DNA from: Takakia lepidozioides
Taxonomy: Eukaryota; Plantae; Bryophyta
Direction of reading: 5' to 3'
Assembly: GCA_030704615.1 (NCBI GenBank)
Contig: CM060733.1
Location: forward strand, 48,422,001 to 48,486,000
Length of the DNA stretch: 64,000 bases
The notes below the pieces were generated by a model. That model worked only from the letters and a program-made list of their open reading frames with translations. It did no database searches and had not been told where the DNA came from. Shown piece after piece: positions 17,582 through 41,790 of the stretch. Each line of letters starts with the position of its first letter. Positions within the stretch are counted from its first letter, which is position 1. The position numbers were made by a program, and so were the translations under genes.

Positions 17582-17881
17582 GTCAACACAGTGAAACTGA
17601 AAGATGGGCGGTCATTGTCTACAGACATTGTGGTAGTGGGCGTAGGCGCGAGACCACTCATAGCCCTTTTGAAGGAGCAGTTGGCTGTTGAGAAGGGAGG
17701 TTTCAAGGTTGATGGGTTCTTCAAAACAAGTGCTCCAGATCTCTATGCCGTTGGTGATGTTGCCACCCTCCCCCTGAAGCTGTTCGGTGACCTGCGCAGA
17801 GTAGAGCACGTTGATCATGCTCGCAAATCAACTATTCAAGCTGTTCAGGCTATCAAGGCAGCTGAGGAAGGGAAGACTATT
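17582..17881 (+). pseudogene. MDHAR: Internal intronless fragment of monodehydroascorbate reductase
   Basis: VKLKDGRSLSTDIVVVGVGARPL..EKGGFKVDGFFKTS..YAVGDVATLPLKLFGDLRRVEHVDHARKS..QAVQAIKAAEEGKTI is the conserved plant MDHAR segment. Confidence 0.88.
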
Positions 17882-17887
17882 GCTAAA

Positions 17888-17971
17888 GGTGGGCTGGACC
17901 TGCTGTTTGGGTCTAAGAAGAAACACGAGGTTGATGTGAGCCTCACCAATGGCCACGCCAAGTTGACAGTG
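17888..17971 (+). pseudogene. URM1: Short fragment resembling ubiquitin-related modifier 1, fused in frame to the MDHAR piece
   Basis: GGLDLLFGSKKKHEVDV resembles the URM1 N-terminus (GGG-ELLF--KKH-V). Confidence 0.6.
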
Positions 17972-18590
17972 GAATGCTGCTGGTTTGGATTCGTGACATT
18001 CATTTCCAGGTGACGGGCGTGAGAGAGAGAGAGATACAGACACATGGCTGCGCAGAGCTTGCATGCCCGTACCTCGCCTCTCCGTCTTGGGGTTGCCTGC
18101 TCCTCGCTGCTTTCATGTGATGTAAGGCTCTTGTTTCTGTCCAAAATGCGGAGAAGATGAGATTGTGGTGAAGCCTGATATATTAGATCGAGCAAATTGT
18201 GTTTGGTTTGGCCAAGAGCTTGTCTTGATAAGGCAAGACTTCAGAAAATTGTGCGCATGTGCTGGCAAAGATGGCCATTGTAGACCATGCCCAGGGGAAA
18301 GCTCTGGGTAGAACAGGCGAAGGGTCCAAATTTGAAGATACCTGTACACGTACTGAAAGTAGACCAGGCCGCCTTCAAATGGACGACTCTTTATCTGAGA
18401 ATGGTCATGCGTATGACAACAGAAAGTTGCATCAACAGGGCTGTTGCCGGTGAGACAGGTGCTGAGTAGTTGTCCAGAGCCTCTGTGGGGGTGAATGTAT
18501 TGGAATGGGACAATGCTGTGCTGCCTAGCTTCCCCAGTTGGGCTTCCGTCAGTTGCTGGTTCAACCACCTGCACCCAATACCAGGAACAC

Positions 18591-18887
18591 CTCTTCCTTT
18601 TTCTCTTCCTCCTTGGAGGCAGCTTCTACTGCAACCCCACTTCCGGCAGCGGGTGCACTGCTCACAGCCACAGCGCCGCCACCTCCTGATCCAACATTGA
18701 TGATGAGGTCATCAACACTTCTCTTCTCCAATAGCTTGGCGAACAGAGCGGGCCAGTAAGTCTCCACTTGCACATTGGCGGCCTTCACTAGCGTTGCAAT
18801 CTTGTCGGCAGTGATGGGAATGCCGTCATCATGTAAAATCAGAGCAGCGTAAGTGCAGGCAAGCTCGTTGTGCGCCACAGCGGCCAT
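18591..18887 (-). pseudogene. RPP1: 60S acidic ribosomal protein P1, intronless and lacking the C-terminal SDDDMGFxLFD tail
   Basis: [59 protein letters not shown]; no terminal exon found downstream. Confidence 0.85.
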
Positions 18888-20721
18888 CGCTTCTCAACAA
18901 GACGCCGCACTCGAGAATCCAGACAAAGAGAATCCAGAGAGCAGGGGCTGCCAAGCGTGTGCCTGCGAAGGAGGATCCCAGCACTGCAACCTCTGTTGGT
19001 AGATTGCAATTCCACCATTTCGGGCACTTATAGGGCATGGTATTTTGACCTTGTTGGGAACCTGCAGTGAATCGCAAAAAAAAAACGTGGGAACAGTTTT
19101 TAATGGCAAGAACGTTTTGGTGTTAAAAAAAAAAAAAACCTTTTGATCTAATTTAAATGATTTAGAGCCTAATTGGTCATAACTTTGTCAGATGGACTTC
19201 GTTTGACTCAGTTTTTGGGGGGATAGTTGCAGAAAGGGGAAATCTACCTATCTAGACTTTTTGGGACTCTGCTAAAAATCTATGGAATTTTTTGAGTGTG
19301 AGTGTGCTATGAAAGATCCACAATTCTGTTTCTAGAACCTGTTGTGGTCTACATGAGAGACAAATCTGTGGATGTCCTCCTTGTATGGCTGGGGGAAATG
19401 AGGACGTAATTGAAGGGTAGGTCTCTTCTCTTTAGCCTGTGCACCCAAGGGGACAAGATTTATGTTTCCCAAGGAACTCAGACTGATTTGAGTGGAGAAC
19501 AGTTGGACGAGTTGATTGCATACTGGGAGTCAGGCATTAGCAGTAGACAACAAACTGCTGTAGATGGCGTTGAGGGCCTCAATATTGCTTTGGACAGTCA
19601 GAACTTTGACTCCTGGGCGTTCAAAATTGCACTGGCAAGTTTTTTTGAGCAGCATTTGTGGGGTTCTTTCAATCTGGAGCCAGCAGTTCTGCAGCTGTAG
19701 GTGAAATACCAAAGTGGGTGAAAGCTAGGCTTGGAACACAGCCAAAGACAGCCCTAGGGACTAAGGTGTTCAGCCACAAGGCCGTGGTGTACTGGAGCAG
19801 AGGAGCAGGAGCTACACAAATTTGTGCAATCAGACATGGTTGCAGCCGGACACGCTCTGCACAAGGCAACCATGAGCGGGGGTTCATTGGCAATGACAAG
19901 TTTGTTTTGCTTGAAGGAGATGCAGTCATTCGCAATGAGGACATCCGCAACCGTCTCAAAGCTTTCGAGTTAAGAGACTGTCACACCCTACCTTTATTTT
20001 CTTTAGTGTTCAGTGAGTGGGAGATAGGGGAGTATTGCTTTGTCTCTACCTGGCAGAAAGAGGAGGAGGGTTGGTTAGAGCGAGCTATTGTAGCTTGGGA
20101 CAAGGTTAGTGGCACGTTTCTGGACATAGATATACCGCCTACACCTTTACCATAATGCAGAGCGAGGCATTTTGAGAGAAGTCTGGCAATTGATAGCATA
20201 GATCAGGATTAGATCTTGCTTGGTCGGGCTTCTATTCTTCCCCTCCATCTCTTTACTATTTTCATTACTTTGTACTTGTAGTTGCCAAAGCCTCTCTTGG
20301 TGGAGGCCAATCAGTCCGGGGTTTTGGGCTGGGATATTCTGCAGGATCAGCATTGCAGCTGGATTTTGGTGTGGGGGTGTTGATGTTTTGATTTCTTGTG
20401 TTTGGATCCCCCCCAACACCTGCATGCTTGACTGTGCGCCATGTTGGTTTTGTGTGGGCGCTTGCTTTCATAGGGATTAGGCCGGATTTGATCACCGGTC
20501 AATCCTAGAATATGCTGTCGGTGGTGAGGCTGGAGTGATGACCAGCAAGACCACCAGTGTTTCTTCTATGGTGAGACTGGGTTGATGACCAGCCAACCAT
20601 AGGAGTTCTTGCGGTGGATGCAGGTGTAGGTGCCCTGAGCCACTGGGATATGACCCTTAAACTACAACAGGTGCTCACCCGTGTCACCATTAGAAATAGT
20701 ACTAGAGCCTTATAGTGTCAC

Positions 20722-23700
20722 GTGGGGGAGGTGCACATTGTGAGTGTCATCACGGAGTTACCCAGGGGTTCTGAGGGGAGTACGGCTACAGGCAGTAGCA
20801 GTGAGAGTGGGTTCACCAGACGAGGTGTTCGTTTCAGACCACCTTCACCTCCATCCTCAACTAGTGCAGAGTCAGACACAGACTCGGAGGCTTCATCAAC
20901 AGGTGTGCAGTTTCATTCGCCATTGTTGTGGGACGACATGGAGGAGATATATGGAGCTACCAAGGGGCCTCGTAGGTACTCTGGAGCTGTGGGCACAATT
21001 GAGCTAGATGACTTTATCCAGGAGTTCGACAGCTGGTGTGATTTGCAGCAGATGCGCAATCCACAGCTGTTCACCCCATTCATGGCGTGGAAGGGACTGT
21101 TCCAGCATTTGGAAGGCCCGCCTATGGACGATTACCACGAGTTCAGGCGAGGACATGAAGTAGAGATTGAGGAGTGGAGGATGTATTGGTCACCTGACTA
21201 CGTTTCCATTACTCGAGGCACGACGCGACCAGTAGCTGCATCAGTACCAATATCTCCCACTGCCAGTACTAGTAGTGGAACAAGTAGTGCCGGTACTTCT
21301 GCAGGTGGTACCAGTTCAAAAGGTGCTACTACTCCTCCTGCCATGACTACAACACATGTGCCTAGATTCAACCCGGTGGTGGAATTCTTCCAGGAGTTGC
21401 GGAGGAACTACCAAGGTGTACGGACAGAGAAGCTGCGAAGTTTGCAAGACTTCTAGCGCAAACCCAGTGAGAGCTTGCGAGAGTCGTATGAGGCGCTTGA
21501 TAAGTGTGACCCAAGGGGTTACTGAAGCTCAGGCAATCCAGTTCTGGTATGGAATTTTGGACAAGGAGCTTAGGAGAAGGGTGCGGGATGCAACCCTGTT
21601 ACAAGCAGCCCAACCCACATTAGCAGATGTGTTTCTGCTGGCTGAGCTGATTGAGCTCAACATGATGGAGGAGCGAGTTGTTACCATTGGATTTGGCAAG
21701 GACATGCCTGCACGAGGCGCAGCTGCCAGTCCACAGGCACAAGGGATTGCCCAACAGCATGGTCAGGGGGGCAAGGTTTCCCAACCCAAGTTCCATGGAG
21801 CTTACAGGGGACCTCAGGTGCAGAGGCCCGTGACATCTTTTGCAGGCCAACAGCAACCAGGGGTGATATGTTGGACATGTGGAGGACCCCATGTCAAGAG
21901 AGATTGCCCAGAGAGTGGCAGAAGGTCGGCACAAGCACAGCCTGCACAGTTGCAGTGTGGGCATTGTGGCAAGTATGGGCATGGAGATGCCCAGTGTTAT
22001 GACTTGCATCCTGAGTTGCGCCCAGGCCAGTTCCAAGGGAACAATGGTGGCCGGGGGCGAGGTGGACCAGCCCAGAGAGGACGAGGTGGTCGGGCACGAG
22101 GTGCAAGCCAAGGGCAAGCTCAACATGGCCAAGGACGCGGAGGTCAGGGTGTTGACCAAGGCATGGCCAACCGGCTTCAGCAGCTAGAGCAGAGGCTCGC
22201 TGCCATGGCTACAGCTCAGGTGGTACCGGCTCCCAGGCGGGATGGTCCCCCTCCTGCTCCTGAGGGAGGAGATATAGGAGGCATGGGATTCATGTGCGAA
22301 GCAGCACTATCACTAGTGCAGGTGGAGTCTGCTGCAGCCGTGACTCGAGGAGCAGCACGAGTTCCTGAGCCACGAGGTGCAGAGGTGGAATTGGATCCAC
22401 AGCGTGGGGAGGCAAGCCGTCAGGCGAGGCTTCTTTGGTCATTCACATTGGCGGAGACAATGTCGACGCCATCCATGGCACCTAGTTCTCGCCCGACTGT
22501 TACCGAGGCGGAGGTTACTATGCCATTGGGGAGAGCTACACGTGCAGCACTGACACCTGCTACCAAGGCTAGTGCAGCCGGTGTGTTATTGGGGGCAGCC
22601 ACCTCTGTGTGGCAAGCCCCACTGTTCTTGGCAACCATGATTGTGACGCCAGGGGTAAGACCAGCTGCAGTGTTCAGACTAGCAGCAACACTCTGCGAGA
22701 GTGGGGAGGTCACTTCATCTTCTGCGGAGTTATTGGAAGGTGTAGTGGCAGAGGGATCCTCGGATTTGAGGGTCAAGACTGCCACGGCTGCGCCATGGCA
22801 AGCTGCAGCTGCCAGGTTGATGGAGCTGCCAGCTAGGCCAGCCTTTGAGCCCGCCATGGTGACACCTGGAGTTGTCTTGTTAGACAACCAGGGAGGCATT
22901 TTCACTTTGAGTGGACCGACATGCAAGAAGTACCGGCCACTGCGGGTCTTTTTGGACTCAGGAGCTCAGCCACTGATGTTGGGCAGAGCTGCTATTGCAG
23001 GTTTGGGCCTCATGGAGGCGGATATGGAGCCTTGTCCTTTCCAGATACAGACATCTCTGGGAGGATCAGAGCAGGCTCGGGGCATGACACGGCGTGAGTT
23101 GGCCATTGGACTACAACCAGATCCACCTGTAGATGGCTCAGTGATGCGAGCCAAGGCCATTGTGACAGACGCGGTCTCTTACGATGTCCTTGTTGGTGGG
23201 GCAGTGTTATATCCCATGGGCTTCACCCTGGACTTTTGGGAGGAGTCAGCATCCTACAGGCCTGGATGGCAGTCAGGGGATGGTCGTCGTGCACAGCTCC
23301 CTGTGACATTCATTGGGGGTATTGCGGCTGCCCAGCGGGGCAAGATGCCAACACTAGCCGCCTTTACAGCTGCAGTTAGTTGGCCTGGAGAGTTGCTGGA
23401 AGGCAATGCCCATGCAGAGGATGTGCCACCTCCAGCAGAGCAGGATGACATGCATGGTACGGCGGAATTGCCTGCCATGGTTGCTCACACTCCATTATGG
23501 GGTACGAGCAAGGATTTGCAGCAGGCTGCTGATGGACGGGTACAACAAGCCTGGGTAGAGGCCTTCATACCGTCAGGAGAAGAGGAGAGTGCGGTGATTG
23601 CACCAGGACCACCTCAGTTGTCGCCATTGGACACCACACCTCTTGTGTGGCAGTGCCCGGATGAAGGCATATGCCTTCTGGACTTGTTTGGCGGGATCAG

Positions 23701-26385
23701 CACTGGATTGGCTGCAGTATTGCAGGCAGGTGTACGAGTTCGACGTTACCTGTATGTGGAGAGGGATGAGACTGCACGACGCGTCTCACTGCGCCATGTT
23801 GCTCAGTTGGTACAGCAGTACCCTGATTTGTTGCCAGTGTCTGCAGTTCGTGGATACCAACAAGCCTTGCCAGCAGACATTTCGTTGCTGGGGGCGCAGG
23901 ATTTGGAGCAGGTTGGCTCCATTGATTTGGTAGTGGCAGGTTGGCCCTGCCAAGGGCATTCATCAGTCGGGCATGACAATGGATTGCGAGACTCGAGGAC
24001 GGGTCTGTTTTGGGAGATGGTGCGGATTTTGCGCCACTTGTAGCTTCATCAAGCTGTATCTCCAGCATACATCTTGGAGAATGTGCCATTGATGGGTGAT
24101 TCTCGGGCCAGGGTGATGGCCAGTGTGTATCAAGTCCGGTCGTGGCTTGGATCAGCAGTGTTGCTGGATGCAGCTGCAATGGGGTCATGGGCTCATCGTC
24201 CACGGCTATGGTGGACTAACTTGATGCCACCCACACTGCTCAAGCGTGCATTTGATGGGGTGTAGCGGCCAGCACACCTCACAGTGGATAGCATTTTGGA
24301 CACAGGGAGACAGTCTCAACGTGTGAGACACGATGACCGTTCGCCTTTGGCAGTGGTCAACAGGGTGGGTCAAACACGAGCAGCATTACCTACACTGCTC
24401 AGCTTCCCAGGATCCCATGCTTTTCGGGATGGTGGACCTGGCCTCTTGTGGGATAGCCAGTTGCAACAATTAGTGGGCCCAATGCTGACGAGCGCGAGCG
24501 GGCGATGGGTTTTACCACAGGTACCACGGCGGTGCCATCTCTTTCTGAGGCATCATGTCGTCAGGTGTTGGGGCAAGCAATGGATCTCAATTGCTTGACC
24601 TGGATTATCAGCTTGGCTATGGCTGAGCAGCGCAGAGTACGGAGTACACTTCCCTTCATGGTCTCCCTGCCTACCGAGACGGTACAGGCAGCGAGTGGGG
24701 GCAAGCAGGTGAGGACCACGAGGTGCAGGCCGCATCCATGGCACACGTGGGAGGTGCTCGAGGTTCAGAAGGAGTTGACAGCCAAGGCAGCGGTGATGGA
24801 TCAGGTTGGGGATTTTTCTCGGATTGATGAGGTCCTCAAGGATGGGATGATGGGGTAGGATGAGACATTGTCACTGACAGAGGAGGCAGTGGTCACTGCT
24901 CAAGAGGTTGCAGCATAGCAACCACGGGACGCATCTTCTACCTCTAAGCCTGCTGGACTCAAGGTTGCAGTCACGGAGGACAACTAGGAGCCTGATGTTG
25001 GACCTATAGTCACCGGAGGACAGAGACGACGTATATGGCGGTTCTTGAGGGCTTACAGGAACTGCTTTGCCTTCAGTTTGAAGGACTTCGGAGCACTGAA
25101 GGGTCAAGAGATTCGCATTGAATTGGCTACTGACACGCCAATCTTTTGGAGACCCTATAGATACAGTGACATGGAGAGGTCCTTGATTCAGATGAGAACT
25201 CAGGACCTTTGGGAGGCTGGTTTGGTGGAGCTATCTGGGGGAGAGTATGCTTCAGCCACAGTGATGCCAACCAAGAAGGATGTCTTTGGCAATTGGACAG
25301 AGAGACGTATGTGCGGTGATTACCGGCCTATAAATCGTCAGACCAAGTCCGATAGATATGCCATGCCAACACCAAAGGAGATCTTTGATGCCATTGGGCA
25401 TGCCAAGGTCTTTAGAACGTTGGATTTACGATCCGGTATCACCAGTTGCCGATCAAGGAGGCGGATAAGCAAAAGACGGCATTTTGGGGGATCAATGAGC
25501 ACGGGAAAGATTGCCTATACCAGTGGCGGTTCTTACCATTTGGGCTTAAGAACGCTCCGGCAGAGTTTCAGAGAGTCATGGACAGGATTCTAGCAGGGGT
25601 GGAGTTTGCTCGGTGCTACATAGATGACATCATCATCTTTAGTGCTACGGTGGAAGAGCATGAGAGACACCTTCAGGGGGTATTTGAGCGCTTGAGGGCG
25701 CACGGATTGAAGTTACATCCGGGAAAGTGCAAGTTTTTCCACAACCAGATTTAGTATCTGGGTCACATGATATATCCTGGAGGATTGGGGGTACAGCAGA
25801 CTAAGGTAGAGTCCATTGCACAGGTTCCACGCCCCACGGATGTGAGCCGAGTTCAAGCTTTCATGGGGTTAGCAAACTATTATAGATAGTTTGTTAAGGG
25901 ATTTAGTGCCATTGCAAAGGCTCTAACCAAGCTGACCAAGGTGGACCAGGAATGGCAGTGGGAAGATGAGCAAGAACAAGCTTTTCAAGAGCTCAAGGCG
26001 AGGTTAACCTCGGCGCCCATCTTGAGACGACCTATCAGGGGGCGTCATTTTCAGCTGCATACAGATTGGAGCATGCTGGGGCTTGGAGCTGTGCTCACAC
26101 AGGTGGATGATGAGGGAAGAGAGTTCGTAGTGGCTTATGCTAGCCGCTCGAACAACGTTGCAGAGTCTAAGTATAGCTCATATGAGGGAGAATGCTTAGC
26201 TGCAGTGTGGGCCGTGGCACACTTCACGTGCTATCTATACGGCAATCTCTTCACCCTTGTCACGGATCACCAACCACTCAAGTGGTTGATGGAGTCAGAC
26301 AAGCTTACGGGGAAGCTTGCACGGTGGGCACTCATCCTTCAAGAGTATGACTTTCAGGTGGTGCATCGACCGGGTTTGGTCAACC
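20722..26385 (+). mobile_element. Ty3/Gypsy retrotransposon with domain order Gag-PR-C5 DNA methyltransferase-RT-RNase H; truncated before integrase; LTR not identified
   Basis: Two zinc knuckles (CWTCGGPHVKRDC, CGHCGKYGHGDAQC), protease VFLDSGAQ, DNMT motifs, RT (RMCGDYRPIN, LDLRSG, PFGLKNAP, CYIDDII), RNase H (LHTDWS, YASRS, EGECLA, TDHQPL). Confidence 0.93.
23663..24610 (+). pseudogene. DNA (cytosine-5)-methyltransferase catalytic domain within Gypsy pol (2 TAG stops, 1 frameshift)
   Basis: Motif I LLDLFGGIS, II YVERD, III ADI, IV DLVVAGWPCQG (catalytic PC), V DSRTGLFWEM, VI ILENV, VIII AHRPRLWWTN, IX PNADERERAMGF, X RQVLGQAMDL, in canonical order. Confidence 0.92.
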
Positions 26386-26962
26386 ATGACTTACCGTGAT
26401 TTACCATGATCTACCATGATTTACCATTATTTATCAAGTTACTGGGAGTTTACCAAATTACCAAGAGTAACTTGGGAAACTGCTCAGGAAGCTTCTTTTG
26501 GAGGAAACTTCTCCATCAAGATACCTCTTTTGTTTAAGGAAGCTTCTCCATCAAGAAACCTTTGTTTAATCTTGGAAACTTCTCTAGCAAGAAACCTCCA
26601 TAGGGGGAAGCTTCTTAGGGAAACTTCTTAGTAGCCAGTATATATAGAAGGCGAGACTGGACACTCTTCAGTCTCGCCAACACCAGTTCAAGCTACTCTT
26701 ATTTCCAGTTCCCAGTACTCCAGTCCAGTTCTCAGTACTCTAGCCCAGTTTCCAGTATCTGGTACTCTAGTCCAGTTTCCAGGATTCCAATATTCAAGTC
26801 GTGTTCCAATATCTTGTACTCTTGTTCATTGTTATAAAGATCGTCTTGATTCCTATTTACTCATCGTGCATTCAGCCACGCCGACCTTGACTTCTTGTCT
26901 AGCCTTGTACCTCTAGTCTTATCTCTTTGTTTATGTTCAGTCATGTTCTCGTCCTTGACAGT

Positions 26963-26973
26963 TTGGCGAGACT
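26963..26973 (+). promoter_or_regulatory. Self-priming PBS
   Basis: TTGGCGAGACT is the exact complement of AGTCTCGCCAA (26670-26680), about 30 nt after the LTR TATA box; I see no tRNA 3'-end match. Confidence 0.8.
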
Positions 26974-29900
26974 AAAGTTTGTTCCTTAGTTAATTAAGAT
27001 GGAAGGCACATTTGCGGAAATGGTCGTCACATTGCAGAGTTTTCAGCTCTAGATGCAAGAACTTCGTGCCTCTACTACCCAACTACAAGCTGATCAGTCT
27101 GAAGATCTTAGCAACGCTCTCAACAATTTGCAACAACAAATTTCAGAGTTGAATGAATTGAACAATGGATCTTCAACCTTACGAGTCCCTACTACAACAA
27201 ATTATACTACAACGGTTCTTCCAAATCTTCAACAGATTACAAGGGAACCAAAGGTCAGCATGCCCGAAAAATTTGATGGGACGAGATCAAGATTTCGTGG
27301 TTTTGTTCAACAAGTATTGTTCCTACGACTACATCTTGATATGAACTGTGGTCCTCGATCAGATACGATGTCCTTCGGGAGTCCATGAATGCGGTAGATA
27401 TTATTGAGGAAGAGTCTTGCAGTTTCCTCGCCGGTAACCGTCTTATTACATGGAATTAAATGTGTCATCTTCGTAAAACGATCCACAATAACAAGGATTG
27501 AATCGGTGGTCTTGGAAATTGGAAGGTCCGTAATAAAGTCCATAGACACGGACGACCATGGACCCTTGAGAATGGGTAATGGTTGAAGAAGGTCGTAAGG
27601 TCGATGTCGTGGTCATTTCGCTCTAGCACACGTGCCGCAAGATTTTATAAATTCTTTCACGAGTTTCCACATTTGCGGCCACCAATAGTCCCTGGATACA
27701 ATTTCATTGTTTTGTTGAAGCCGAAATGTCCTACAGCCGGAAGATCATGACATGTTTGAAGAATTCGAAGTTGTGTAGGTCCTGGAGGTACATAGAGAAG
27801 TCCCTTGAAATAAAGTAAGTCATCTTTGAATTCGAAATCGTTTGTAACATGTGGGTTGTCTCGAGGTCGATTTAGTTGACTTCATAGTGTCGTAGCAAAT
27901 TGGTCGCTCTTCAGTGCTTCCTGAATCTCCTTTATGATCTCTACATCGTTATAGGTGGACATGGATAGCATATTCACTTGGAGATTTGCTGGTTTCAAGA
28001 TGATAGATTTCTGTTGGTTAAAAGTTGCATTCCCTTCTTATATTCGTACAAGGTTGTAAGCTCATCTCAAGTCGATCTTTGTGAAAAAATTTGCTCGTCC
28101 AAAGTTGTTCGATGAGTTCGGAAATCAGCGGTAGTGGGTAACGATTTTTTATAGTGACTTTGTTAAGCCCTCGATAGTCCACACACATGCATAACGATCC
28201 GTCCTTTTTCTTCACAAATAAGATAGGTGCTCCCGCGGGTGATTTCGAATGTCGAATGGAATTCTTTGACAAATTTTCATCAATGTATTCGTGTAAAGCA
28301 GCCAGCTCCGTCTGAGATAAATTATAGATCGGGCTGAATGGTGGTTGAGCTCTTTCTTGCAACTCAATTGCACAATCATATGGTCGATGTTCTGGCAACA
28401 TGTCTGTATTTTTCTTCTCGAAGACATCCTTGAAATCTTGATATTGAGTGGATAATGTCGAAATACCTTGCTCTGTTGTGGTTTTGATTGGAGTCGCATA
28501 AAGTGCAAATGTCGCGTCTTTCTTCGTAGCTCTCATGAAGGCTCTAGCTCCAAGAAACAGGGGTTGAATACCTTTGGTACTTTTGCATTTTTGTCTTGCC
28601 GAAATTTATCGTGATCGCCAGTCGATGTCAGGATTATGAAGTACAAACCAGGGAAGTCCAAGGATCGTAGGATTCGTTGGAGACTGGATGAAACAATCTG
28701 TGATGCTTGATTTTTAAGTTTCACTTCAAGGGGTCGAGTTTCATGGTCAATATTTCCTGATGCTAACGGTTGTCCATCGATGACTTTAACAGGGGCCGAG
28801 AATTTCTTTCTTACGAGCGTTAAATTGTGTTGCTTCGCAAAGTCTTTGTCAATAAAACACGCTGAAGCGTCCGAGTCCAAAGTGCTTCTACGGAGATATG
28901 TCGATTTTGCATCTTGATCTTTACTGGAACTGTGAAACAATGTACAGGGTCTGGAGGTAGAAAGAGACATTTTTTTTATGAAGAATTTGGGGTGTCCAGC
29001 CGCATGGTCCCTACTGTGACTGGACATCTTCGTTTTCCGACCTCCTCGTATCAAACTCTTGAGTTGTGCCCCGAGCTTTGAATCTTCTCTTGTTGGGGCA
29101 GTTTAATGTTATATAATCATCTTCTCCGCAATAAAGGCATAATCCATTTGAGCATCATCTTTGTTTTTTTTGTGGCGTCAATGGCTTGAATCGGACAACA
29201 TCAATCTGCATAGGATCATTACCGGATGTCTGATGGATCGTTGTGTTTGGTGCCGTAGTAGCAGCGGCATGGTGCGTCGTCGACCATCCAGATCGCTTCT
29301 CTTGACATCTTTCGAACAAACGATTATCGCATGCAACGACTTGGGTGATAAATTCGCTCAGTGTACTCACATTTGGCATTGTCAGCAACAAATCTTTTAC
29401 ATCCTCTTTTAGGCCACATCGAAATTGACTAATGAGACTCTTCTCATTCCAGTCGAGGTCGCACGCAAGTTATCGAAATTCGGCAGCATAAACGGAAACT
29501 GGATGTGCTCCTTGTCGAAGATTTCGCATCTTTGTCTTTGCAACTCTCTCTCTATCATTCTCTCCAAACGTTGCAGTGAACTCGGACGTGAACGCTTCAA
29601 AATTGTATAGTAAATGCGAATTTTTCTCTAATAGCGGTACAAACCAAGATAGGGCAGTGTCTGATAGAAGGGTGCCCACGAATCTCACTTGAATACCTTC
29701 ATTAGAGTAGCGATATGATTTCTGGAGGGGATTATTTCACATATTGGATACTAAGATCAACCTCTCTACAGCTAATCATCCACAGACTGATGGTCAAACC
29801 GAACGTGTAAACCAGATTTTGGAGCAGTATCTTCGCTGTACGATAAATTATCACCAAAATAATTGGATGGACCTTCTGTTATTAGCTGAGTTTGCCTACA

Positions 29901-32161
29901 ACAACACTATACATTCTGCGACCAAACAAACTCCATTTTTCTCCAATTATGGTCATCATCATCGAGCAAACCCTTTCCACATGAAGACTGTTGGAAGCCC
30001 TGCTGCAGAAAACCTTGCTACTCATCTCGCTACGATTCACAAGGAGCTTACATTCCACCTCGCAGAAGCTCAAAAACAATACAAGGAGTATGCAGATCAA
30101 CGTCGCCAACTCCAACCCCAATTCAAGGTCGGAGATCATGTGTGGCTTCTTCGACGAGACATACAAACCTCGCGACCATCAAGGAAGTTGGATTATCAAC
30201 GCCTGGGACCATTCAAAATTATTCGACAAATAAATCCGGTCAGTTTTCGGCTTGAACTCCCATGAATTATGCACATCCATCCAGTCTTTCATGTTTCATT
30301 GCTGGAGTTGTATCATCCATCGAATATTCCAGGGAGAGTCTCCGTACCACCTCCACCAATCGAAGTTAATCAGGAAATTGAGTATGAAGTCGACGAAGTC
30401 CTAGACTCCGCATCATCTTGAGTATTTCGTACATTAAAAAAGCTACGACATCAGCGAACGAACGTGAGAACCTTTATCCAACCTCGCCAATGCATCTGAT
30501 AAAGTCCAAGAGTTTCATCAACGATATCCAGCTAAGCCCCGAACTACACATCAATAAGACGTCACAACGATGATGTCAACCAAGTTAGCTTCAAGGTGAA
30601 AACTCCACATTCAATGTACCTGATACATGCTAAGGAGGGAGGAGCACCACATATCAGTATATATAGCTACACTTTCCAGCACTTCCAGCACTCTGGCATC
30701 TTGTATTGGCAGTATGAAGTAGACAATGGGCCACCAATGCGATACGTACTTCCTCGTCTAGACCCCGTACGATGACAAGTGGAGCCTACTCGAAGTCTGA
30801 TAATTCTGAGGCTTCGGACCCAAATGGCAACGAAATCATGTTTGAAGGCAGCTTTGAAAATCAGTATGCTCAAATCACTGTGTGCTCCCATGTGTCAAGG
30901 TGTTGGACATTATCGATGGTTGCAGGGACCTATAAATCATTTGAGTCAAGAACGAAGAGCCGAATACTTGGCAAGTACCATTCGTCGGATTTTGGATTTT
31001 CTCCAACTCTAAGCAAGTCCAAGATTTTACCGCTCCTCGAGGAACTCGACGCTACAGGAGGGGGTGATGTCACGGACATAGCCCAGAGGAACTTATCATA
31101 AGTAAATGCCAGAAGTTACCTAGTTAACATGTTACCGGAAGTTACCATGACTTACCGTGATTTACCATTACTTACCAAGTTACCGGAAATTTATCAAATT
31201 ACCAAGAGTAATTTGGGAAACTGCTCGGGAAGCTTCTTTTGGAGGAAACTTCTCTATCAAGATACCTCTTTTGTTTAAAGAAGCTTCTCCATCAAGAAAC
31301 CTTTTTCTAATCTTAGAAACTTCTCCAGCAAGAAACCTCCATAAGGGGAAGCTTCTTAGGGAAACTTCGTAGTAGCCAGTATATATAGAAGGCGAGACTG
31401 GACACTCTTCAGTCTCGCCAACACCAGTTCAAGCTACTCTTGTTTCCAGTTCCCAGTACTCCAGTCTAGTTCCTAGTCCACACTAGAAGAAAAACGCGGA
31501 ATAACCACTGGCCGTTTAACCACTACTGTCTTTTTCCACTCTATAAACCACTAGTAACCACTTGCCAGTGGTTAATCCCAATGAAATGCCACGGTGGCAT
31601 CACAGATAGTGGTTGGAAGTGGTTTCAACCACTCAGTAGTCCACGTGTAATAATTTATTATAATTTATTATAATTTATTTGGTAATACATTTTAATTAAT
31701 AAATATAATATTCGACGTGGACGAGTGCAGTGGTAAATTGTGAGTGGTTATAGACACCTCAGTGATGGGAAGTGGTTGAAACCACTTGCTACTCCACGTG
31801 TAATAATTCAAAATTTATTTGTGATTTATGATTTGGAAATATATTTTAATTCATAAATATAATATTCCATGTGGACGGGGACAGTGCATGTTGATCTTGA
31901 GTGGTTAAAGACACCTCATTGATTTGTACCACTTTTACAGTGGTGGAGAGTGGGTGGTGAAAGATATTGCAGTAATTGGAACCACTATTTTAGTGGTTGC
32001 TCATGAGTGGTTGCCTACAGACAAGTGATTGGTACCACTTTTTGGGTGATACACGAAAATTTTTAAGTGGTTTGTGCAACTGTGACAGACTTTGAAAAAC
32101 AGACAAGTGGCCAGACCATTGTGGCATGATGATATTGAACAAATGGTTCCAACAATAAACT

Positions 32162-35100
32162 TTATTCTGAATCTGAAACATATTTGTCACCCTCTGAATC
32201 ACTTTGCTCAACTGGAATAGTGGTTGGTTGCACAAACGCCACTTGAATGGTACCCCACATAGCCAGGTCTTCTTTATTTAGAGCCGTGGCACCATCTAAT
32301 GACCTAGGTATTGGCTGATCTGATAAGGTGGACGGTGCCTGAAGGCCATCGAAATCTGCATTTTCACCAATGTCACATTGATCTATGTCCGCCACAATCC
32401 TTTTTGCTCTTGGATCCTTCCGAAGGACTACCTTCCACTCCGAACTTGGGGACTCATCCGAAAAGAACCCCTGTTCAACTTGAGATGGAAAGATGAACGG
32501 CTGATCATTGGCGGGTAACATCCTCCCAAAATTTGCAATTAGAAAACCATACGAATCCCGCCTCATTGTAGCATTTTGTCCAACGAGGTTGGCCCTCACC
32601 CAGGCACAACGAAATACAATGGGGTGCACTCGTCCATAATCCAATTTGAAGATCTCTTTGATGACCCCAACGTACTCTAATGGTGACATGACTGGATTTT
32701 TATCACGCACACTATTTCTGTTTCTGTTGCTGGAAGACGGATGCAACTCCGGAATCAAAAGAGACAAGAAGACGACTCTCAGTGTCATCCACTCGATAAT
32801 GATTTCCATACGCCTTCATGCCACGAAATGAAGCTGATCTCAATGAGGGGGGAGTAGACAAATGAATTACATCCGTATCCTCAACACCATGCTCAGAGAC
32901 ATGGGCCTGGACTGCATGGTGTATCCATACCGGTAGGGGTGGAAACTCCAACAAATGGGGAGGGTATGGCACCGGAAGGCGGCGGTGACGTCGATAATTG
33001 GCACGCCACTCACGAGCACATGCCTCTCTGTTTGCAGTGAACTGTGCCTTCTCTGTTGCATACTTTCTGTCACAAAATGACAACAAGAATGACACATGTT
33101 AGCAATGAAGTGTTGCATTACTTTGCAAAAAATACCTAGCATGAATGATACTTTGAAAACCACTGGATGAGTGAGCAGAATGACTTGTAAATGAACATGC
33201 TCTTCCAAAAAGTCACTCACTTAGACATTCAGTTACTACAGAAGTGGTTATCATCACGATGAACCACTGACATTTATAACTTTGTGGGTGGTTCTATTAC
33301 ACTGGTGACAGTCACAATTGCATTTGAACTTGATATATATGAATAAGGTGCAATGAAAAGAAGAACTCACTATACCCAAGGAACCATCACATTGGTATTG
33401 TTCAACACATACAAATGTGCTGCATCTCTTTCAGCTCCACTCATGTCTCGTTTTTTGCCGACACCTTCCAAGACCTCGTTCTCAACCCCTTCCTCCGCAT
33501 TTGCATCCCAAATCCGTCGTTGAGTTGCATATACTCACTCATGAACCCCATGGCCTCATCAAGAACATACCCTGCAGCCATACTCCCTTCTGGCTTTGCG
33601 TAATTTCTAACGTATCCCTTGAGATCTTTCATGTAACGCTCCATGGGATACATCCACCGTGATAACACCGGACCACATGTATCTAGTTCATCTACGAGAT
33701 GAACTAGCAAATGGGTCATGACATCAAAGAAAGAAGGGGGAACTCTTTCTCTAAGAGACATAAGGTTATAGCAACATCCTCATGCAATGAATCTATTTCA
33801 TTAGGGTCCCATACTTTGGCACAAATCCAGCGGAAAATACGACTCACACGCATAATGACCCCACGTGGGCCCCCCGCCATGCAATGGTGAATACACACAG
33901 GTAAAATCTGTTGCATTAAAACGTGATAATCATGGGACTTCATACTCGTCAAATGTTTCCTAGACGGGTGTATGTGTTTCTGAAATGCACCTGCAAATCC
34001 CGAAGGAGTTTTGATAGCCCCCAAAGTATCAAGAAATATCGCGATTTCAGCGGGAGTGAGAACATACGGTGCTGCTGGTTTCATGATACGTGAAGGGTTT
34101 TGTGGATCAGGCCAAAGCCACAAGTGACGTCTGATGCCGATTACCTCCATGTCGTTCATCACCTTCACCGTGTCCTTCCGTCCGAAAATCGTCTTCAACA
34201 AGTTTTCACAAAAATTCTTTTCGCAATGCATGGGATCCAGTAAGTAGCGTTGCAACAGATCCTGCAATTGGTGACACCATTTCAGGAACATTCCGACAGA
34301 TTGCAGTCGTATACAAATCAGATTCCTTTATGAGCACTATATACTTCCATGTCTAAAGTTGTTGTGATGCATGACAGTCCCTCCTCAGTGGTTCAAACAA
34401 CTCCTTTAGTGCATTATTAGCCTCTCAAGTGATGTCAACAACTTCCTGAGCATCATGGATACTACCTTTTACCACTCCACGAGTTATTGATGTGAAGTCC
34501 AAATTACATGCAGTACTGCTACTTTACCACTCGGGAAGTAAGAAGTAACCACTACAGGGGCACTACCTTTTCCATTTACAAAGAACATTGAACTCAAACA
34601 AGTACAAGTGCAGGGGGTACCTTCCAGTATGGTAAATCCCCTAGGCAGCTGCGCCTTTTAATACCATGAACCTTGGCTGGATGAACTTCAGCATCAAGAA
34701 AAGCACGGGGGTCAAGGTCATAACCTTCAGCCTCAACACCAGCGGCCTCTTGTTCAACCGGTGTGAACGGATGTGACTTCGTACGCATCTCCACCTGTCC
34801 ATTGAAGTGTATGCGGTTCTTGCGGTATGGATGGGCCTGACGGAGGAGCCTGCGGTGACCTTGGTAGATAGTTTTGCCCAAAACTTTTGAGTGTCTTGCA
34901 TCTACATGAGGACCGCATACTGGACACCCTTTGTAGCCTTTTGTGACACATCCTGCAAGTAGGCCATAAGCAAGAAAATCGTGGATGCTCCACAGTAGTA
35001 TGGCGCGTAGTATGAAGGTTCTCTCACCAACAGGTTTGCATATGTCATATGCCCGAACCCCTCTCCACAAAACAAATAACTCCTTCATCAGTGGTGCTAA

Positions 35101-36313
35101 GTACACATCTATGTGCTCACTTGTAATTGACTGCTTTCCTGGAATCAAGAGAGTAAGCATGACAAAGAACTTCTTTGTAGTGAGCCAGGGAGGTAGGTTG
35201 TATACTAGCGTCAACACTGGCCATGTTGACCAGCAATTGTTCTTATCACCAAACGGGTTGACCCCATCGAAGGAAAAACCAAGCCTTACATTGCAAGGCT
35301 GTGCTGCAAAGTCGGGCCAAGTAGCATCAATGTGTTTCCAAGCCTTTGAATCAGCTGCATGGCGCACAAGGCCATCGTTGCTTGCATTCCGATTGTGCCA
35401 TGTTATTAATTCTGCAATAGAAGAACATCTATACATACGCAAAAGGCGTGGTATCAATGGAAAATGGCGAAGCACCTTAACAGGTACCTTGGATCTCCCC
35501 ACATTTTTGAATCGAGCGCTTTGACACTTGGGGCAACTCTCTGAAGTTTTCAAGTCCCCCCTAAACAACACACACCCCTTTGGGCAAGCATCGATCTTCT
35601 CATAAGCAAACCCAAGCTTGCTCACCATGGTCTTTGCATGGTAAAAAAAATGTGGGTAGTACGTTTGGTTGTGGCAACAAGGTTTTCTGCAGCAAAGATA
35701 ACATTTCATCCGCAAAGCCATTTGTAACCCCATGTGTTGCGCATAGATTCATTATAAGCATGGTGGATGCAAGCTTAGAGGATTTACAGCCTTCATACAA
35801 AGGTAGACATGCCTCTTCCAATGAGATGGGATCATCAGTGTGAGAGTCCCCACCCGCAATCGGGTCATGGGCTAAGGAAGGGATGTTCGTGTCACCAGGA
35901 ACATCTAGGTCATCTAATTTCACTTCTGCCCCATCTCCAGTTTCAGGTGTGTCTATGATCTGAAAGGTCTCTTGGATCATGCGCTGTACCTCAACATTTC
36001 TATCCAATTCTCCCTATGTCCGATGATTTGCTAAAGCTACGTCGTCACCAACCACCACGGCCGTGTCTTCCCATTCATCGTCAGAAGCATGCCTCCTTGC
36101 TCCTCTCCAGGATCTGAACGCATGGGATCTATGATTGGCCATTAGATATTTTCTCACTCTCTCTATAGAGACCGGTCATCCACCCTTACAGTGATTGCAA
36201 GGGCATCTTAACTTGTTGAGACCATACTCTCGACACCGCGCAACTTCATGCTGAAAAAGAGCATCGTCGCGCTGTTGCAATCTCAGCACGACAGCTGCTC
36301 TGTCAGGCTCCAT
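32162..36313 (-). pseudogene. Multi-exon Tnp2/TnpD transposase, frameshifted
   Basis: CPCNHC N-terminal motif, IDACPKGC, LRHFPLIPRL, DGVNPFG..STWPV, DPMHCEKN, MKSHDYHVLMQ, FFDVMTHLLVHL, RWMYPMER, and C-terminal YVGVIKEI..FRCAW..PFIFPSQV..WKVV. Confidence 0.93.
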
Positions 36314-37856
36314 GATGCTAAGGAATTCCTTTCCCGGTATGAGGGGAGAATCAAGATTAATATACCAAGTCCCTAAAAAACAAGAATTTCAACAATCTAC
36401 TGTACATCTCTACTCATAGAGTTGTAAGGTACCACTTTCTGAGTGGTTGTTTCACACCTCATATTTCAACTTTAGAACTACAAAAAGAGTGAGTATGACT
36501 CTGACAGTGCAGAAAATGGAAAAAGTTGCCTCTTGTCATCTACAAACCACCTTCTTAGTAATATTCAGAGTGGATTGAATCACTACGTGGTGACCTAGCA
36601 GACCCTACTTCTAGGTACAAGCTATAGTGCTTTAAGATAGGATGTCTTGAAGGTTGTGAGCAGTAGCCCAGCCCATCATATGCATTTGTAGTTAGCACGA
36701 AGCCGTTAGCCCGTCTGTTGTCATGTGCTTATATCTACAGCCTCCTCCATCTGCTCAATCTGAATGTGCACTTGTAGGGTTTAGTTAGGCTCAGTCTCTT
36801 TTCAATTTTGCTGAAGGAGAGTGCAAGTTCTATGGCAAAGAGTGAACGCAGCCCAAAACATTTGAACGACGATGGCACTGGAGGCGATTTGGCAAGAGCA
36901 CCTGGTTCAGCAGAGAGCGAAAGTGGAGGAGAAGAGGAGTCACTTACCCCAGGAGAATGCAAAGGGATGGTGGAATATGAACGGTATCGTGCTATCAGGG
37001 TAGCCGAAAACAAAGCTTGGTTGTTGGATTGGAGCTCCAAGGGCACTGCACCGTAAGTCGAAGCTGTCTCCCTGCTCGAATACTGTTCCTGCGATGATTC
37101 CTTCTCTCCTTCATTGCATTGTTCCCTCCTTCCCTGCACTTACAATGCGATCGCAGCACCTGAGCCGAGAGATGGCCTCCCCTGCGTTGCTTCCACGCCA
37201 GACTTACGTCTGTTTCATGAAAGGTAGTTGAGGTCCCAAGAGCCGGATGTAGTGGTTATGGACACTAGTGTAGTGGTTAATATGTACCCTAATTTGTTTT
37301 TAAAAAAAAAAAAACGACGTGTCCACATCCCATCTCCGCCATTGGATGGACGTGGACTGTCGGATGTTGCGCGACACTTGGACAACCTCATGTCTCTCAC
37401 GCGAGCGTACTAAGTGTGTGTGCTTTGCTTTTTGAGCTTCCTGGGCTTGTGAGGGCGTTTTGTTGTGAGTGACCTGGGCGATTGTGGGAGAGTAGAGAGA
37501 AAGAGAGACCCCCGCGTACTGCCCGCTATGTGTGGAACGGCCCAGTGCGAAGGAGTACTCGTTTGAGGGAGAGGAGTCATGTTCACATGGGGGTGGCGGA
37601 GAAGGAGTCCAACGACTTGGAGACCAACCTGGGGGAGGATAGTGGAGTGACTCCCAGTGCTGACTACTCAGCAGAGAGCGAGAGCACGGACGAGGAGGAA
37701 GACCAGAGTGCTGAGAAGATCGTCGTTCGCATGACTCCTTCCAAGCGGCCCTTAAGGACATCCACCCCAACCAAGGAAGGTAACAAGCTGGCGGTGGGAT
37801 CCCTAAGACCCCTTCTGTCTCTGTCTCTATCTCTCTCCCTCTCTCACCCTTAGTTC

Positions 37857-39385
37857 ACATAGCTGTGTCACAATTAACGGACAGAAGTCCAACTTCTTTG
37901 ACATAGACCAAGGTGTAGCTCAAGGATGTACTCTCTCCCCTCTGCTCTTCAATGTTTTCATCAATCAACTCCTCGAGGATGTGGAAAGTGAGGGATTTAG
38001 GGTTAAGGGTGGGTGATACCACCATACCAGCCCTTATGTTTACGGATGACTTCGCAGGCATAGGAGAGACTCCAACCAATCTCCAGGAGTTGATTGATTG
38101 CGCGAAGAGATACTTTGATCTTTGGGGGCTAGAGGCTAATGTCAGCAAATGTGCAGTGCTAGCATTCAACGACAGAGGAGAGGGAGAAAGTGATCTTAAG
38201 TGGCAGTGGGATACCCAAGAGATCCCGGTCCACCCTAAACCCTACACTTACCTGGGCGTTCAGTTTTCCTCCAGTTGTAATTGGGATGCACATATCCGGA
38301 AAGTTGTTCAAACTGGCAAAGGCAAAGGTCTGGGGCTCACTAAATTTTTCCACTGCATAGGGGTCAACTCTGAGGTTTAGAAAACCATGCTTTGTCGCGT
38401 TATTAGACCTGCATGGAAGTACGAATATGCTATATGGGTTGATAACTCCAACCAGGCTAAGTCTGTAGAATCCATTCAAGTGGGGGTGCTTAAGGAGTAT
38501 ATGTCAGCATGCTCCAAAACAGCCAATGTGGCTGTTCGGGGTGAATTTGGCATTCCGTCCTTAAGCTCCCGACGACATGAATTCAAGGTCAGATGGTGGG
38601 GTCAGCTGCAACATATGCCCAAGACCCGATATCCTAAGTTAATCGACTCTATATCTTGGAAACAGGACCGCCCTGTCAAACAGGCTAAGTCCTGGTAGAA
38701 GAGAGTAGAAGAGATTCTCAAGGACCTGGACCTGGATCCCCAAGTCTTGACCCTACTGGATAAATCTGACTTAGAGGCTGTAGTGTCCAAAGCCATGTCT
38801 GTTGCCATTGTCTGTGAAAATGAAGTTAGGCAGAAAACTTCCCTGAACTTGTTTCCAGTCAGTGACATGGGGGACGACATCTTGGATGACCTCAAGGGTC
38901 TACCCACTCTCGGCACTAGACTGAAATTTAAACTCAGTGCAGGAAGCCTACCTTTGAACAGCTAACAGAAGTAGAGAGGAAAGAGAGAGTGCAATTGTCC
39001 ATTGTGTGGGCAATCTGAAGACAATATTCATTTTTTGATACACTGTCCGGGGTTCTCTCACCAAAGAGACGCTCTCTTCAATTCTATCAAGGGAATTGTG
39101 CCTGTACCCCTGTTTACCAACTTTGAAAGTCTCGAGTCTGAGCCAAAAGCCCAGGCCCTCCTGAGGCCTAGTTTTTGGGCAAATCACACTCAATAGATTG
39201 ATGCTTGTGTGAAGGGATTTCTAGAGGATATCTGGAAAACCCGGATTAATTCTTTATATGAAGGTAAGTCTTACTACCAACGTCAGCCCCTGACACAGGT
39301 AGGTTCTGTTCCTTTTGTTCCCGCTCAAATTGGGCGCGGGGTCAATGGCCACAAGGCTACGGCAAACAACGTCTTATGAGTACAA
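37857..39385 (+). mobile_element. 5'-truncated non-LTR retrotransposon (LINE) with 15-bp TSD
   Basis: TSD TCTCACCCTTAGTTC at 37842-37856 and 39386-39400; RT motifs LSPLLFNVF, LMFTDDF, NVSKC, YTYLGV; C-terminal CPLC..HFLIHC; no poly(A). Confidence 0.9.
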
Positions 39386-41790
39386 TCTCACCCTTAGTTC
39401 CTCTCAGATTGTGGAAACAATTGAGCATTTTCATGATGTGTAGGGTTTAGGGTAGGGTTTTGTGTAAAGCAGAGGTAGAGGCAGAACCGAGCAAGGTTTA
39501 GGGTAAATCTAAGTGAGTAAGAGGCTGGGGTGTATGGCGGAGGAATGATCTTTGGAGTGATGAACTGATGGAGAAGGGAGTGTGTGGGGCTGGACTGAGA
39601 GTGAGGGAGAGGCTGGAGAATGGCTCATGAAATGTATATGCTTACAATGACTGAGATGGTGATTGGTTTATATAACCAAGCCTATTACTACTATGATTGG
39701 CTTGTGAACTTAAGGCATGAGTGGTTGATTGTTTCATTTCGAACCTGATATGCTTTGAGCCTGGTTCCGAAGATTTATCTCCAGACCTGCAATCAGCTTT
39801 TGTGATGAGTTTACAATCTACATATATGGTGATAAATGTTATATATCAAACCTTGGTTCTTTCCTAAATGTGAATGACCTGGAAACTTTGTTAGAAAGAT
39901 GAATGGCTTACGAGTTGGACTATGTATGGCTTGACTGCTGGATTAAATTTCAAAGGGTTAGAACATGTGTTAGGGTCTTAATACTGAATGGATGTGGGAC
40001 ATTGCTAGGGCGCCAGAGCATGACATTCCATGCATTCACGCCATTGGATGCCAAACTTTTCTTGGCACGTTGGGCCAAGGTTTGTATGCGTTCACGAACT
40101 GCCGACCTTGCTCGTTGCCCGGTTGGCCTTATTTTCCATCATTGCTAACTTTGTGGGGTGGAGGGGCTTGTGTTAGGCTGCATCAAAGTGCGCAAAGGAA
40201 GGGGGGACTGAGGCTGTGGCGAATGCTACTGGTCCACCTACGACATGGGTGCAACAAGGCCCAAATGGCCCATGGGTGCAATCCAGAGGTGGGCAAACGT
40301 GGCTACAGCAAGGAGCACCTACCTAGCAGCAGCCCATGGCCCCTCCACAGACGACGAACACGTGGTCATGGATTCCACGTGAACCACTGTCCTTAACCAC
40401 CGGTGCCACGTAATGTCTTTTACCACTCACTTGTCCTAATGCACTGGTTCTTCATCACTCTGGGCCATAGTGGTTTAGTGTCTTTTACCACTCAAAGTGA
40501 GTGGTTAACAGAGTGGTTATTCCGCGTTTTTCTTCTAGTGCCAGTATCTAGTACTCCAGTCCAGTTTCCAGCATTTCAGTATTCAAGTCGTGTTCCAATA
40601 TCTTGTACTCTTGTTCACTGTTATAAAGATCGTCTTGATTCCTATTTACTCATCGTGCATTCGGCCACGCCGACCTTGACTTCTTGTCTAGCCTTGTACC
40701 TCTAGTCTTATCTCTTGTTTGTGTTCAGTCATGTTCTCGTCCTTGACAACAACCCCCACATCGGTGGCTAACCGCCTCACCAAAGAAGCACCACCTGAAA
40801 AAAAAGAAAATGCCTATGAGTGTCGGACAAAAAGAAAAAAAATCAAAATGAAAACAATTTAAAAGAAGAAAAAGAAGCGTGCATGTAACCTCAATCTCGC
40901 TGCTTTGTACACCTCAAGGATTGCCCACGGCTTGGCTTGCGGGAGACTAATTTTTCCTCCACCCCCGCCCAAGAGGGGCCCAAGAGTGATTCTCGCACAC
41001 TTGCAGGCACTGGATTCCAAGCATCCTTGAGCTTTTAAACTCCTTCATCCAGCACCTTCTTCGCTGAACCCAGAGCCTCCAATGCCCGTTTTTCTCTCAG
41101 CCTCCACCCTTCTTCTCTCGGCCTCGGCCTCTTCCTTCTTTATCTCATCTTCCTCCTTTTTTCTTTTGGCCGCCTCTTTGTTCTCTTTCTCTTCCTTTGC
41201 CCTCTTTCTCTCGGCCTCCTCCTTCTTACCTCTCTTGGCCTCCTTGTCCTTCTTGGATCGAAAACTACATCTTCCTCTTTTTTCCTGTGAGGGTGTCTTT
41301 CTTTTCTCTCTCCCTCTCTTCTTTCTCCATCTCTTTCTTTCTCTCTTCTTTCTCTTTCTCAAGTTTCTCCTTCTCTAGGAGCTCTCTCCTTGCCTTAGTT
41401 GCCTTTGTTAGGGACAGGGCTACCGTGCAAGCTGCATCCCGACCGAAGAGTACGACCCTCCATCAAATGTGTCACCGGCAGAGGCTGAGGGGAAGGAGGA
41501 GGAGTGGAAGGTGCACCATGAGAAGGGTGTGGGGACCTATAAGGTGGTTGCCTACCCTTTGAGCCACCTACCATTTGCGCTCCCACCAGTGATGTGAACT
41601 TTGACGTCGCGGCCCGTGTCACTCTAGTATTTGGAACCAAGAAGGGATTGGAGGGCCTCCCCTTCCATGCACCTGTGTGGTCTTGTGCAACAGTCGTGGA
41701 CTTTGGATCCACTTTCTCGGCCCATGTTACCCCAAAAAAACTATGAAAATACGACAACTTGAACCGCCGGTGACATAGGATGAACCTAGA

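Follow-up and report, generated by a model that had tools for sequence, protein, structure and literature searches.

A DNMT3-type methyltransferase in a bryophyte Ty3/Gypsy retrotransposon family and the probably leaky stop codon that follows it

Why a land-plant retrotransposon should carry a DNA methyltransferase is the question raised by a stretch of 64,000 nucleotides of the Takakia lepidozioides genome, analysed here at its full length as the window (assembly GCA_030704615.1, contig CM060733.1, positions 48,422,001 to 48,486,000, forward strand). Six-frame reading and motif mapping of the window revealed a decayed Ty3/Gypsy coding region at 20938-26383, with Gag, protease, a cytosine-5 methyltransferase (DNMT), reverse transcriptase (RT) and RNase H (RH). 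This copy is a dead, 3'-truncated member of a bryophyte Ty3/Gypsy family, and the TAG at 24916 that lies between its DNMT and RT is probably part of the design of the element and not decay, judging from its recurrence in related sequences. The kind itself has been published for an alga; what this analysis adds is its breadth in bryophytes and the conserved leaky-type stop. The parts of the element and its neighbour are the following:

19052..20937, + strand: 5' terminal repeat (A) and leader, with candidate TG starts at 19052 and 19340
20938..22030, + strand: Gag containing two zinc knuckles, interrupted at 21454 by a stop and near 21470 by a frameshift; 52-61% identity to Marchantia model P0003
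22862..23270, + strand: aspartic protease, FLDSGA at 22949 (motif and domain mapping)
23660..24620, + strand: DNMT3-type cytosine-5 methyltransferase, motifs I-X unpermuted, with two stops and one frameshift
24916..24924, + strand: in-frame TAG followed by CAA CCA, likely a programmed readthrough stop closing the Gag-protease-DNMT frame
24988..25880, + strand: RT, YIDD at 25617, frameshift near 25436 and stop at 25752 (Pfam RVT_1, E 3e-23)
25890..26383, + strand: RNase H, at the end of which the element is cut off (Pfam RT_RNaseH, E 1.9e-35)
26384..40748, no strand given: unrelated Gypsy adjoining the cut; first long terminal repeat (LTR) 26384-26960, second LTR 31130-40748

The methyltransferase contains motifs I (DLFGG, 23681), IV (GWPCQ, 23936), VI (ENV, 24077), VIII (RPR, 24197), IX (ERAMGF, 24496) and X (GQAMD, 24571) in the unpermuted order, it is intronless, and it has kept the catalytic PC, ENV and RxR, as the initial annotation had stated; it also matched Pfam PF00145 (E 7e-13), the family that had been proposed for it. 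Its top solved-structure match was DNMT3A (E 1.1e-9), followed by weaker matches to a plant DRM-type chain (4e-5), HhaI (8e-4) and DRM2 (8e-3). A host DRM, which is a permuted DNMT3 with motifs VI-X ahead of I-V, was ruled out by the motif order. In addition, a stop-free relative with 66% identity to the window DNMT (locus L012) was predicted to have a DNMT3 fold (predicted local distance difference test, pLDDT, 95.4), and this model matched DNMT3A and DNMT3B with a Foldseek E of 3e-19 and TM of 0.72-0.73. The DNMT3 assignment refers to these best sequence and fold matches, the trees described below having been built without host DNMT3 rows. Across 181 related domains, the catalytic C was present in 177, the E of ENV in all 181 and the two R in 177 and 175, and E replaced the P of the PC motif in 80. 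This replacement, together with the inactivity in yeast of the enzyme from KnitGypsy-Dnmt3 of the charophyte Klebsormidium nitens (PMC5890265), would fit a domain retained for a non-catalytic or RNA-directed role. Such a role appears quite improbable in view of the near-invariant C, ENV and RxR, the full DNMT3 fold that is predicted and the reported methylation of CG by the related SymbioDIRS-Dnmt3 enzymes (PMC5890265).

The window copy itself carries eight internal TAGs and three frameshifts and has lost its 3' end, in agreement with the earlier verdict that it is dead. TAGs interrupt the DNMT part at 24041 and 24263 and are found further on at 24856, 24916 and 24985, and motifs IX-X share the frame of the N-terminal half of RT after the frameshift near 24478. 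The zinc knuckles (21869-21907 and 21956-21997), protease, DNMT motifs, TAGs and this frameshift were all located where the initial annotation had placed them. However, the single frameshift that it counted is joined by a second one in RT near 25436, and the reading frame that it opened at 21356 is the Gag-DNMT frame only in its later part; the first ~40 codons lie outside the Gag frame, as Gag starts at ~20938 in another frame with a stop and a frameshift of its own. In public runs of the host, other copies read differently at the stops 24985 and 25887 and at the frameshifts 24476 and 25436, so this damage is private to the window copy. The element ends at 26383, where the LTR of another Gypsy starts without its first 15 bases, which suggests that the 3' part was lost through a deletion at this junction. 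The Ty3/Gypsy order is present in the window from protease to RNase H; no integrase or PHD finger of the family remains there, and both are found in relatives only. The bounds first given for the element were 20722-26385; the 3' cut lies at 26383, and family sequence begins 1.4-1.7 kb upstream of that start: family-level contig depth starts in the bin 19004-19504, contigs at 19385-20624 and 20190-20794 reach into Gag, and relatives start ~1.5 kb ahead of Gag. A tblastx search found no conserved extra reading frame 5' of Gag (zero matches outside the window).

Whether the DNMT is a standing part of this lineage or an accident of one locus was addressed with the host's public runs. In run X1, summed contig depth, which is not equivalent to copy number, lay between several hundred thousand and a million throughout the coding region, compared with 328-465 over 18002-19003. 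Run X6, from an independent study, gave an even depth (116-240) across protease, DNMT and RT, and in run X7, whose nature as RNA is a guess, a single contig spans 24541-26383, from DNMT motif X to RNase H. The same depth over DNMT, protease and RT indicates a repeated family with the DNMT as a standing part. The heavy damage of the copy would be in keeping with algal contamination, a misassembly or the recent acquisition of a host DNMT by this single copy, but these explanations are hardly credible against the even depth and the spanning contig from another study's run, and against the occurrence of the same order in many species. They are further opposed by KNOX1 and CACTA sequences in the same window and by a monodehydroascorbate reductase fragment 3 kb upstream that is closest to liverworts (80% in Calypogeia and Riccia, 76% in Marchantia and a lycophyte, 75% in Sphagnum); this comparison, which taken alone would make the host a land plant and probably a liverwort, concerns one 104-residue fragment, and the top-scoring Pistacia row (65%, 895 aa) was set aside for its lower identity. 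The initial annotation had named recent neutral capture and algal contamination as what would overturn it, and neither held, given the order in many species, the depth, the flanking gene and the selection described below. Its claim that the DNMT is integral to a Gypsy lineage in an embryophyte was supported by the family-level depth, by the same placement in Marchantia, Calypogeia and Sphagnum and by purifying selection.

A search among 5778 longer candidate proteins gave 44 matches, the best including Marchantia and Calypogeia (64-73%) and Sphagnum (56%), and 175 proteins were found at E <1e-30 in a representative protein library. The relatives in Marchantia, Calypogeia and Sphagnum have the protease upstream, as mapped on the protein set, and the DNMT in the same place. 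Two domain orders were found, protease-DNMT-RT in bryophytes and Closterium versus RT-RH-DNMT-integrase-PHD in the chlorophytes Scenedesmus and Haematococcus and in others, and these split apart in the RT and DNMT trees (support 98 and 96). Both are FastTree trees that omit rows of unusual length, and the DNMT tree additionally leaves aside 56 rows that have only the DNMT. In both trees the window clusters with Marchantia, Calypogeia and Sphagnum-type loci, and in the RT tree a Coleochaete scutata transcript is sister to this group (support 96). The Klebsormidium protein KFL_013780010, compared via its RT (56% identity), groups with the protease-DNMT-RT elements with support <95. PF00145 was found in the same chain in 8 of 67 close RT proteins, as expected if a stop divides the frames, which is no proof of a DNMT upstream of each. 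In the sequences compared, the lineage is spread wide in bryophytes and green algae, which suggests an old green-lineage family; within streptophytes it probably goes far back, and KnitGypsy-Dnmt3 is probably related to it. The initial annotation had proposed a lineage that persisted in, or was transferred into, an embryophyte; the lineage is indeed present there, but as no rare survivor, and horizontal transfer could still lie behind the distribution.

Within the large chlorophyte sister group (P0044, P0059 and many others) the DNMT sits between RNase H and integrase, an arrangement for which no published report came up. P0397, a member of the family's RT cluster, is filed as an uncultured cyanobacterium (NCBI, UniRef) and is probably a plant or algal contig in a bacterial bin.

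Sequence divergence indicated that the DNMT has been maintained. Between the window and a Sphagnum-type family (matched to Sphagnum fallax model P0040), the DNMT was 65% identical, with ~0.24 nonsynonymous (dN) and >2 synonymous (dS) changes per site, while identity was 36-42% in the linker and 75-78% in RT. For the related loci L020 and L021, dN was 0.031 and dS 0.264 (dN/dS ~0.12), and decayed Sphagnum-type copies (L003 versus L010) gave a dN/dS of ~0.5, as expected after insertion. These are pairwise counts, with synonymous sites near saturation in distant pairs, and they indicate that the DNMT is under purifying selection in the family.

How the DNMT would be expressed relative to RT depends on the TAG at 24916. 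In a metagenome scan for relatives, the best 80 of 325 related stretches were retained as loci (L numbers), to which all counts of loci refer. A scan of IMG/VR gave 26 pattern matches, none of them related. DNMT is followed by RT in 55 of these, the remaining ones ending early or being rearranged. A close clade comprises 30 loci, 4 of which end too early and 26 of which have the full 420-nt linker, and the pattern TAR-CAR-YY lies within the linker in 21 of the 26 (19 in frame and 2 shifted by an upstream frameshift), where the background of the pattern is 0.023 per 420 nt (7 matches per 127,089 coding bases). As for the other five, an insertion precedes the site in L004, the codon after the stop is altered in L048, and three diverge ahead of the site. 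For the Sphagnum-type family, 23 rows were aligned, of which 19 share one column for the stop (15 TAG and 4 TAA) and 4 diverge ahead of the site; a sense codon stands there in none (0/23). Several loci are duplicates out of related assemblies; counted fairly, the evidence comes from four families, namely those of the window, the Sphagnum type, L020/L021 and L033. The stop site is in frame in all four, at distances of 249, 297, 345 and 396 nt from the DNMT, and their linkers, where compared, are 23-42% alike. The exact CAR-YYA follows the stop in the window, L020, L021 and L033, and the Sphagnum-type family has CAA CCC, with the last base off.

L020 is an intact element in which a single TAG CAG TTA separates an open Gag-protease-DNMT frame of 1369 codons from an open RT-RH-integrase-PHD frame of 1047 codons. 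The same two sizes are seen among full-length database proteins (about 1250-1440 and 1030-1080 residues), and the Marchantia and Calypogeia models P0003, P0007 and P0005 terminate 94-96 residues past motif X. Relatives with the same order (Marchantia, Calypogeia, Sphagnum) and an intact copy with integrase, which the initial annotation had looked to, exist. It had escaped that annotation that the TAG at 24916 is probably not plain decay: the same type of site occurs in four families and L020 is intact. DNMT and RT share a frame, but they are probably not joined in one unbroken polyprotein as it had read them; more likely, the DNMT is the last domain of the Gag-protease frame, which a conserved leaky-type stop would then close.

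The CAR-YYA context is the readthrough signal of plant viruses such as tobacco mosaic virus, and murine leukaemia virus (MuLV) gag-pol, SIRE1, Tca2 and tobacco mosaic virus likewise use an in-frame stop to part an abundant from a rarer product (available portions of PMC2194720). The context of the window stop matches the tobacco mosaic virus type, and the upstream product would here add a DNA methyltransferase, unlike in those systems. Unlike in MuLV, no shared RNA structure was found 3' of the stop in 5 sequences (z +1.3 to -2.3). On this basis we consider it quite likely that the UAG between DNMT and RT is read through at low frequency. Several observations weigh against this. CAA CCC follows the stop in the Sphagnum-type family, most of whose copies also have an ATG two codons on; the more distant clade has the pattern in only 1 of 37 loci, out of frame; this clade and Closterium-type proteins run from DNMT into RT without a stop, which is therefore not required throughout the lineage; in the window's own family the TAG at 24916 is known from the window copy alone; and CAG-to-TAG changes are frequent in decayed copies. 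A second clade of DNMT-bearing Gypsy elements (L030-L080), with the same termini and no DNMT/RT stop, came from the same metagenome assemblies as the Sphagnum-type family.

RT and integrase might instead be reached by splicing, as in Ogre, where an intron lies between Gag-protease and RT (available portions of PMC6317226), or by re-initiation at a nearby ATG. The gene models P0009, P0010, P0015 and P0040 connect DNMT to RT beyond the stop, and the ATG of the Sphagnum-type family would favour re-initiation. However, the joins in these four models differ in place, as ab initio predictions would, the reading frame is maintained across the stop in every undamaged locus, no ATG precedes the RT core in the window, L020 is without a nearby ATG, as is L019, and CAR-YY is kept. 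The division falls past the protease as in Ogre, but unlike in Ogre there is no intervening non-coding spacer (PMC6317226, same portions). Both alternatives are therefore unlikely, and low-frequency readthrough of the UAG is preferred.

With a leaky UAG, translation of the transcript would yield Gag-protease-DNMT as the abundant product, with the DNMT at Gag-like levels, and the few ribosomes that pass the stop would append RT, RNase H, integrase and PHD. In the particle, cleavage by the protease would then release the separate domains, so that the methyltransferase would outnumber RT and lie next to new complementary DNA (cDNA), and methylated cDNA could enter a methylated genome already marked. 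By analogy with other retroelements, release of the DNMT by the protease and its packaging seem somewhat favoured, and new cDNA as its substrate is a possible but slightly doubtful proposal. The model as a whole, that is, a Gag-protease-DNMT frame, a leaky UAG and an abundant packaged DNMT likely methylating new cDNA, is in our view reasonably probable. It is drawn from sequence and predicted fold. Against it stands the lack of methylation by KnitGypsy-Dnmt3 in yeast, a result that its authors deem inconclusive (PMC5890265). The ratio of observed to expected CpG is 0.47 in the copy versus 0.48 in the host background (0.40-0.97 in the other LTR elements of the window), hence no trace of self-methylation was found, and depletion of CpG and CHG proved uninformative as its sign.

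The absence of a CpG deficit beyond that of the host would also be consistent with an active DNMT that acts on chromosomal DNA, such as the integration site, other copies or host genes, or that limits its own element, instead of acting on packaged cDNA. PHD fingers read histone H3 tails, and the one in the integrase could tether the readthrough product to chromatin. Self-limiting roles have been raised by de Mendoza et al. (PMC5890265). We regard chromosomal or self-limiting activity as possible but rather unlikely, as a DNMT that follows the protease and closes the Gag frame would from general retroelement biology better fit a particle protein.

The relatives also show both termini, of which the window copy has lost the 3' one. 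They run from TG to CA and carry a short inverted repeat at these ends, and repeats in the arrangement A-coding-B-A-B were found in L013, L038, L047, L063 and L071. L019 and L014 have A-coding-B only, which is what recombination between two B repeats would leave. Among six loci examined, 4-bp target duplications were exact in L014, L019 and L038, had one mismatch in L047 and L071 and were unreadable in one. Intact relatives carry an rve integrase that ends in a PHD finger. DIRS and Ngaro elements, which have a tyrosine recombinase and no target duplication, were ruled out by this integrase and by the duplications. At the internal B-A junction the right end meets the left end across two bases, giving a near-palindrome that resembles an LTR-circle junction. 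We infer from these sequences that insertion is integrase-mediated and that the B-A junction templates the cDNA ends. A broader scenario, which we offer tentatively, is that of an ancient green-plant lineage that remains abundant in mosses and liverworts, its Marchantia copies having gone unnoticed, in which the leaky UAG would load DNMT3 at Gag stoichiometry for pre-methylated insertion, and the split repeats would prime and end the cDNA, with the B-A junction giving the integrase its ends.

The closest published element is KnitGypsy-Dnmt3, the Gypsy-DNMT3 kind that the text and supplementary files of PMC5890265 ascribe to Klebsormidium only, without naming Marchantia or Physcomitrella. According to this source, it resembles the window family as a Ty3/Gypsy whose DNMT3-type domain is intronless, unpermuted and subject to purifying selection, and five window relatives share its DIRS-like A-coding-B-A-B repeats. 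It differs in that its host is a charophyte and not a land plant, and in that its DNMT lies in the Pol frame with RT, whereas in the window clade the frame is the same but a conserved stop lies between; one open DNMT-RT frame is seen here in the distant clade and Closterium, not in the window clade. Its capture was called specific to the K. nitens lineage, yet kin occur here in liverworts, Sphagnum, Coleochaete and Closterium and, in the RT-RH-DNMT-integrase-PHD order, in Scenedesmus and Haematococcus. Other retrotransposons with a cytosine methyltransferase include SymbioDIRS-Dnmt3 and SymbioLINE-Dnmt (PMC5890265) and the EpiLTRs of Euglena and Cymbomonas (available text of bioRxiv 10.64898/2026.05.21.726589). 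SymbioDIRS-Dnmt3 shares the DNMT3 type and the A-coding-B-A-B repeats with the relatives described here, but these published elements have a tyrosine recombinase, are long interspersed nuclear elements or bear a DNMT4-related enzyme with DAM and a chromodomain, unlike the window relatives with their DDE integrase, PHD finger and 4-bp target duplications. Gypsy-DNMT elements have been ascribed to 'streptophytes' in the available text of PMC12344493 and of the same preprint, and trees in the 2025 and 2026 papers of the de Mendoza laboratory may hold land-plant copies. In the accessible portions of PMC6317226 no PHD- or DNMT-bearing clade appears among plant Gypsy clades, and those of PMC11982613 held nothing relevant. 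No report of land-plant copies or of a stop between DNMT and RT was found in literature outside subscription papers, figures and preprint supplements.

Published retrotransposon DNMTs come from dinoflagellates and algae, hosts that are hard to work with, which is part of why the role of these enzymes has stayed open. As Marchantia polymorpha is a genetic model with many copies, this role becomes testable in a land plant. The conserved stop indicates the amount and timing of DNMT production, which would follow Gag and not RT; production alongside Gag points to a function within the particle. The finding is also relevant to how many DNMT genes are counted in bryophyte genomes, as frames of the element are annotated as hypothetical or methyltransferase proteins. 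The family also bears on whether transposon enzymes shape early land-plant methylomes and, if the broader scenario is true, a transposon of land plants would here be setting its own epigenetic state.

Lastly, the window contains other features around the element. Upstream, 17559-18947 holds the intronless monodehydroascorbate reductase fragment (+) and an intronless frame for 60S acidic ribosomal protein P1 (-, 18561-18893); both sit between a short high-depth repeat (17309-17502) and the 5' end of the element and may be retrocopies or captured fragments. In the rearranged Gypsy at 26384-40748, a 9-kb CACTA element (31481-40540) with a 3-bp duplication interrupts the second LTR; the CpG ratio of this Gypsy, 0.97, is much higher than elsewhere in the window. 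One ordinary Gypsy and two Copia elements without DNMT lie at 1381-3803, 5239-7746 and 12245-16722, and pieces of host genes for a KNOX1 domain and eRF1 were found at 46632-47084 (-) and 58068-58520 (-).

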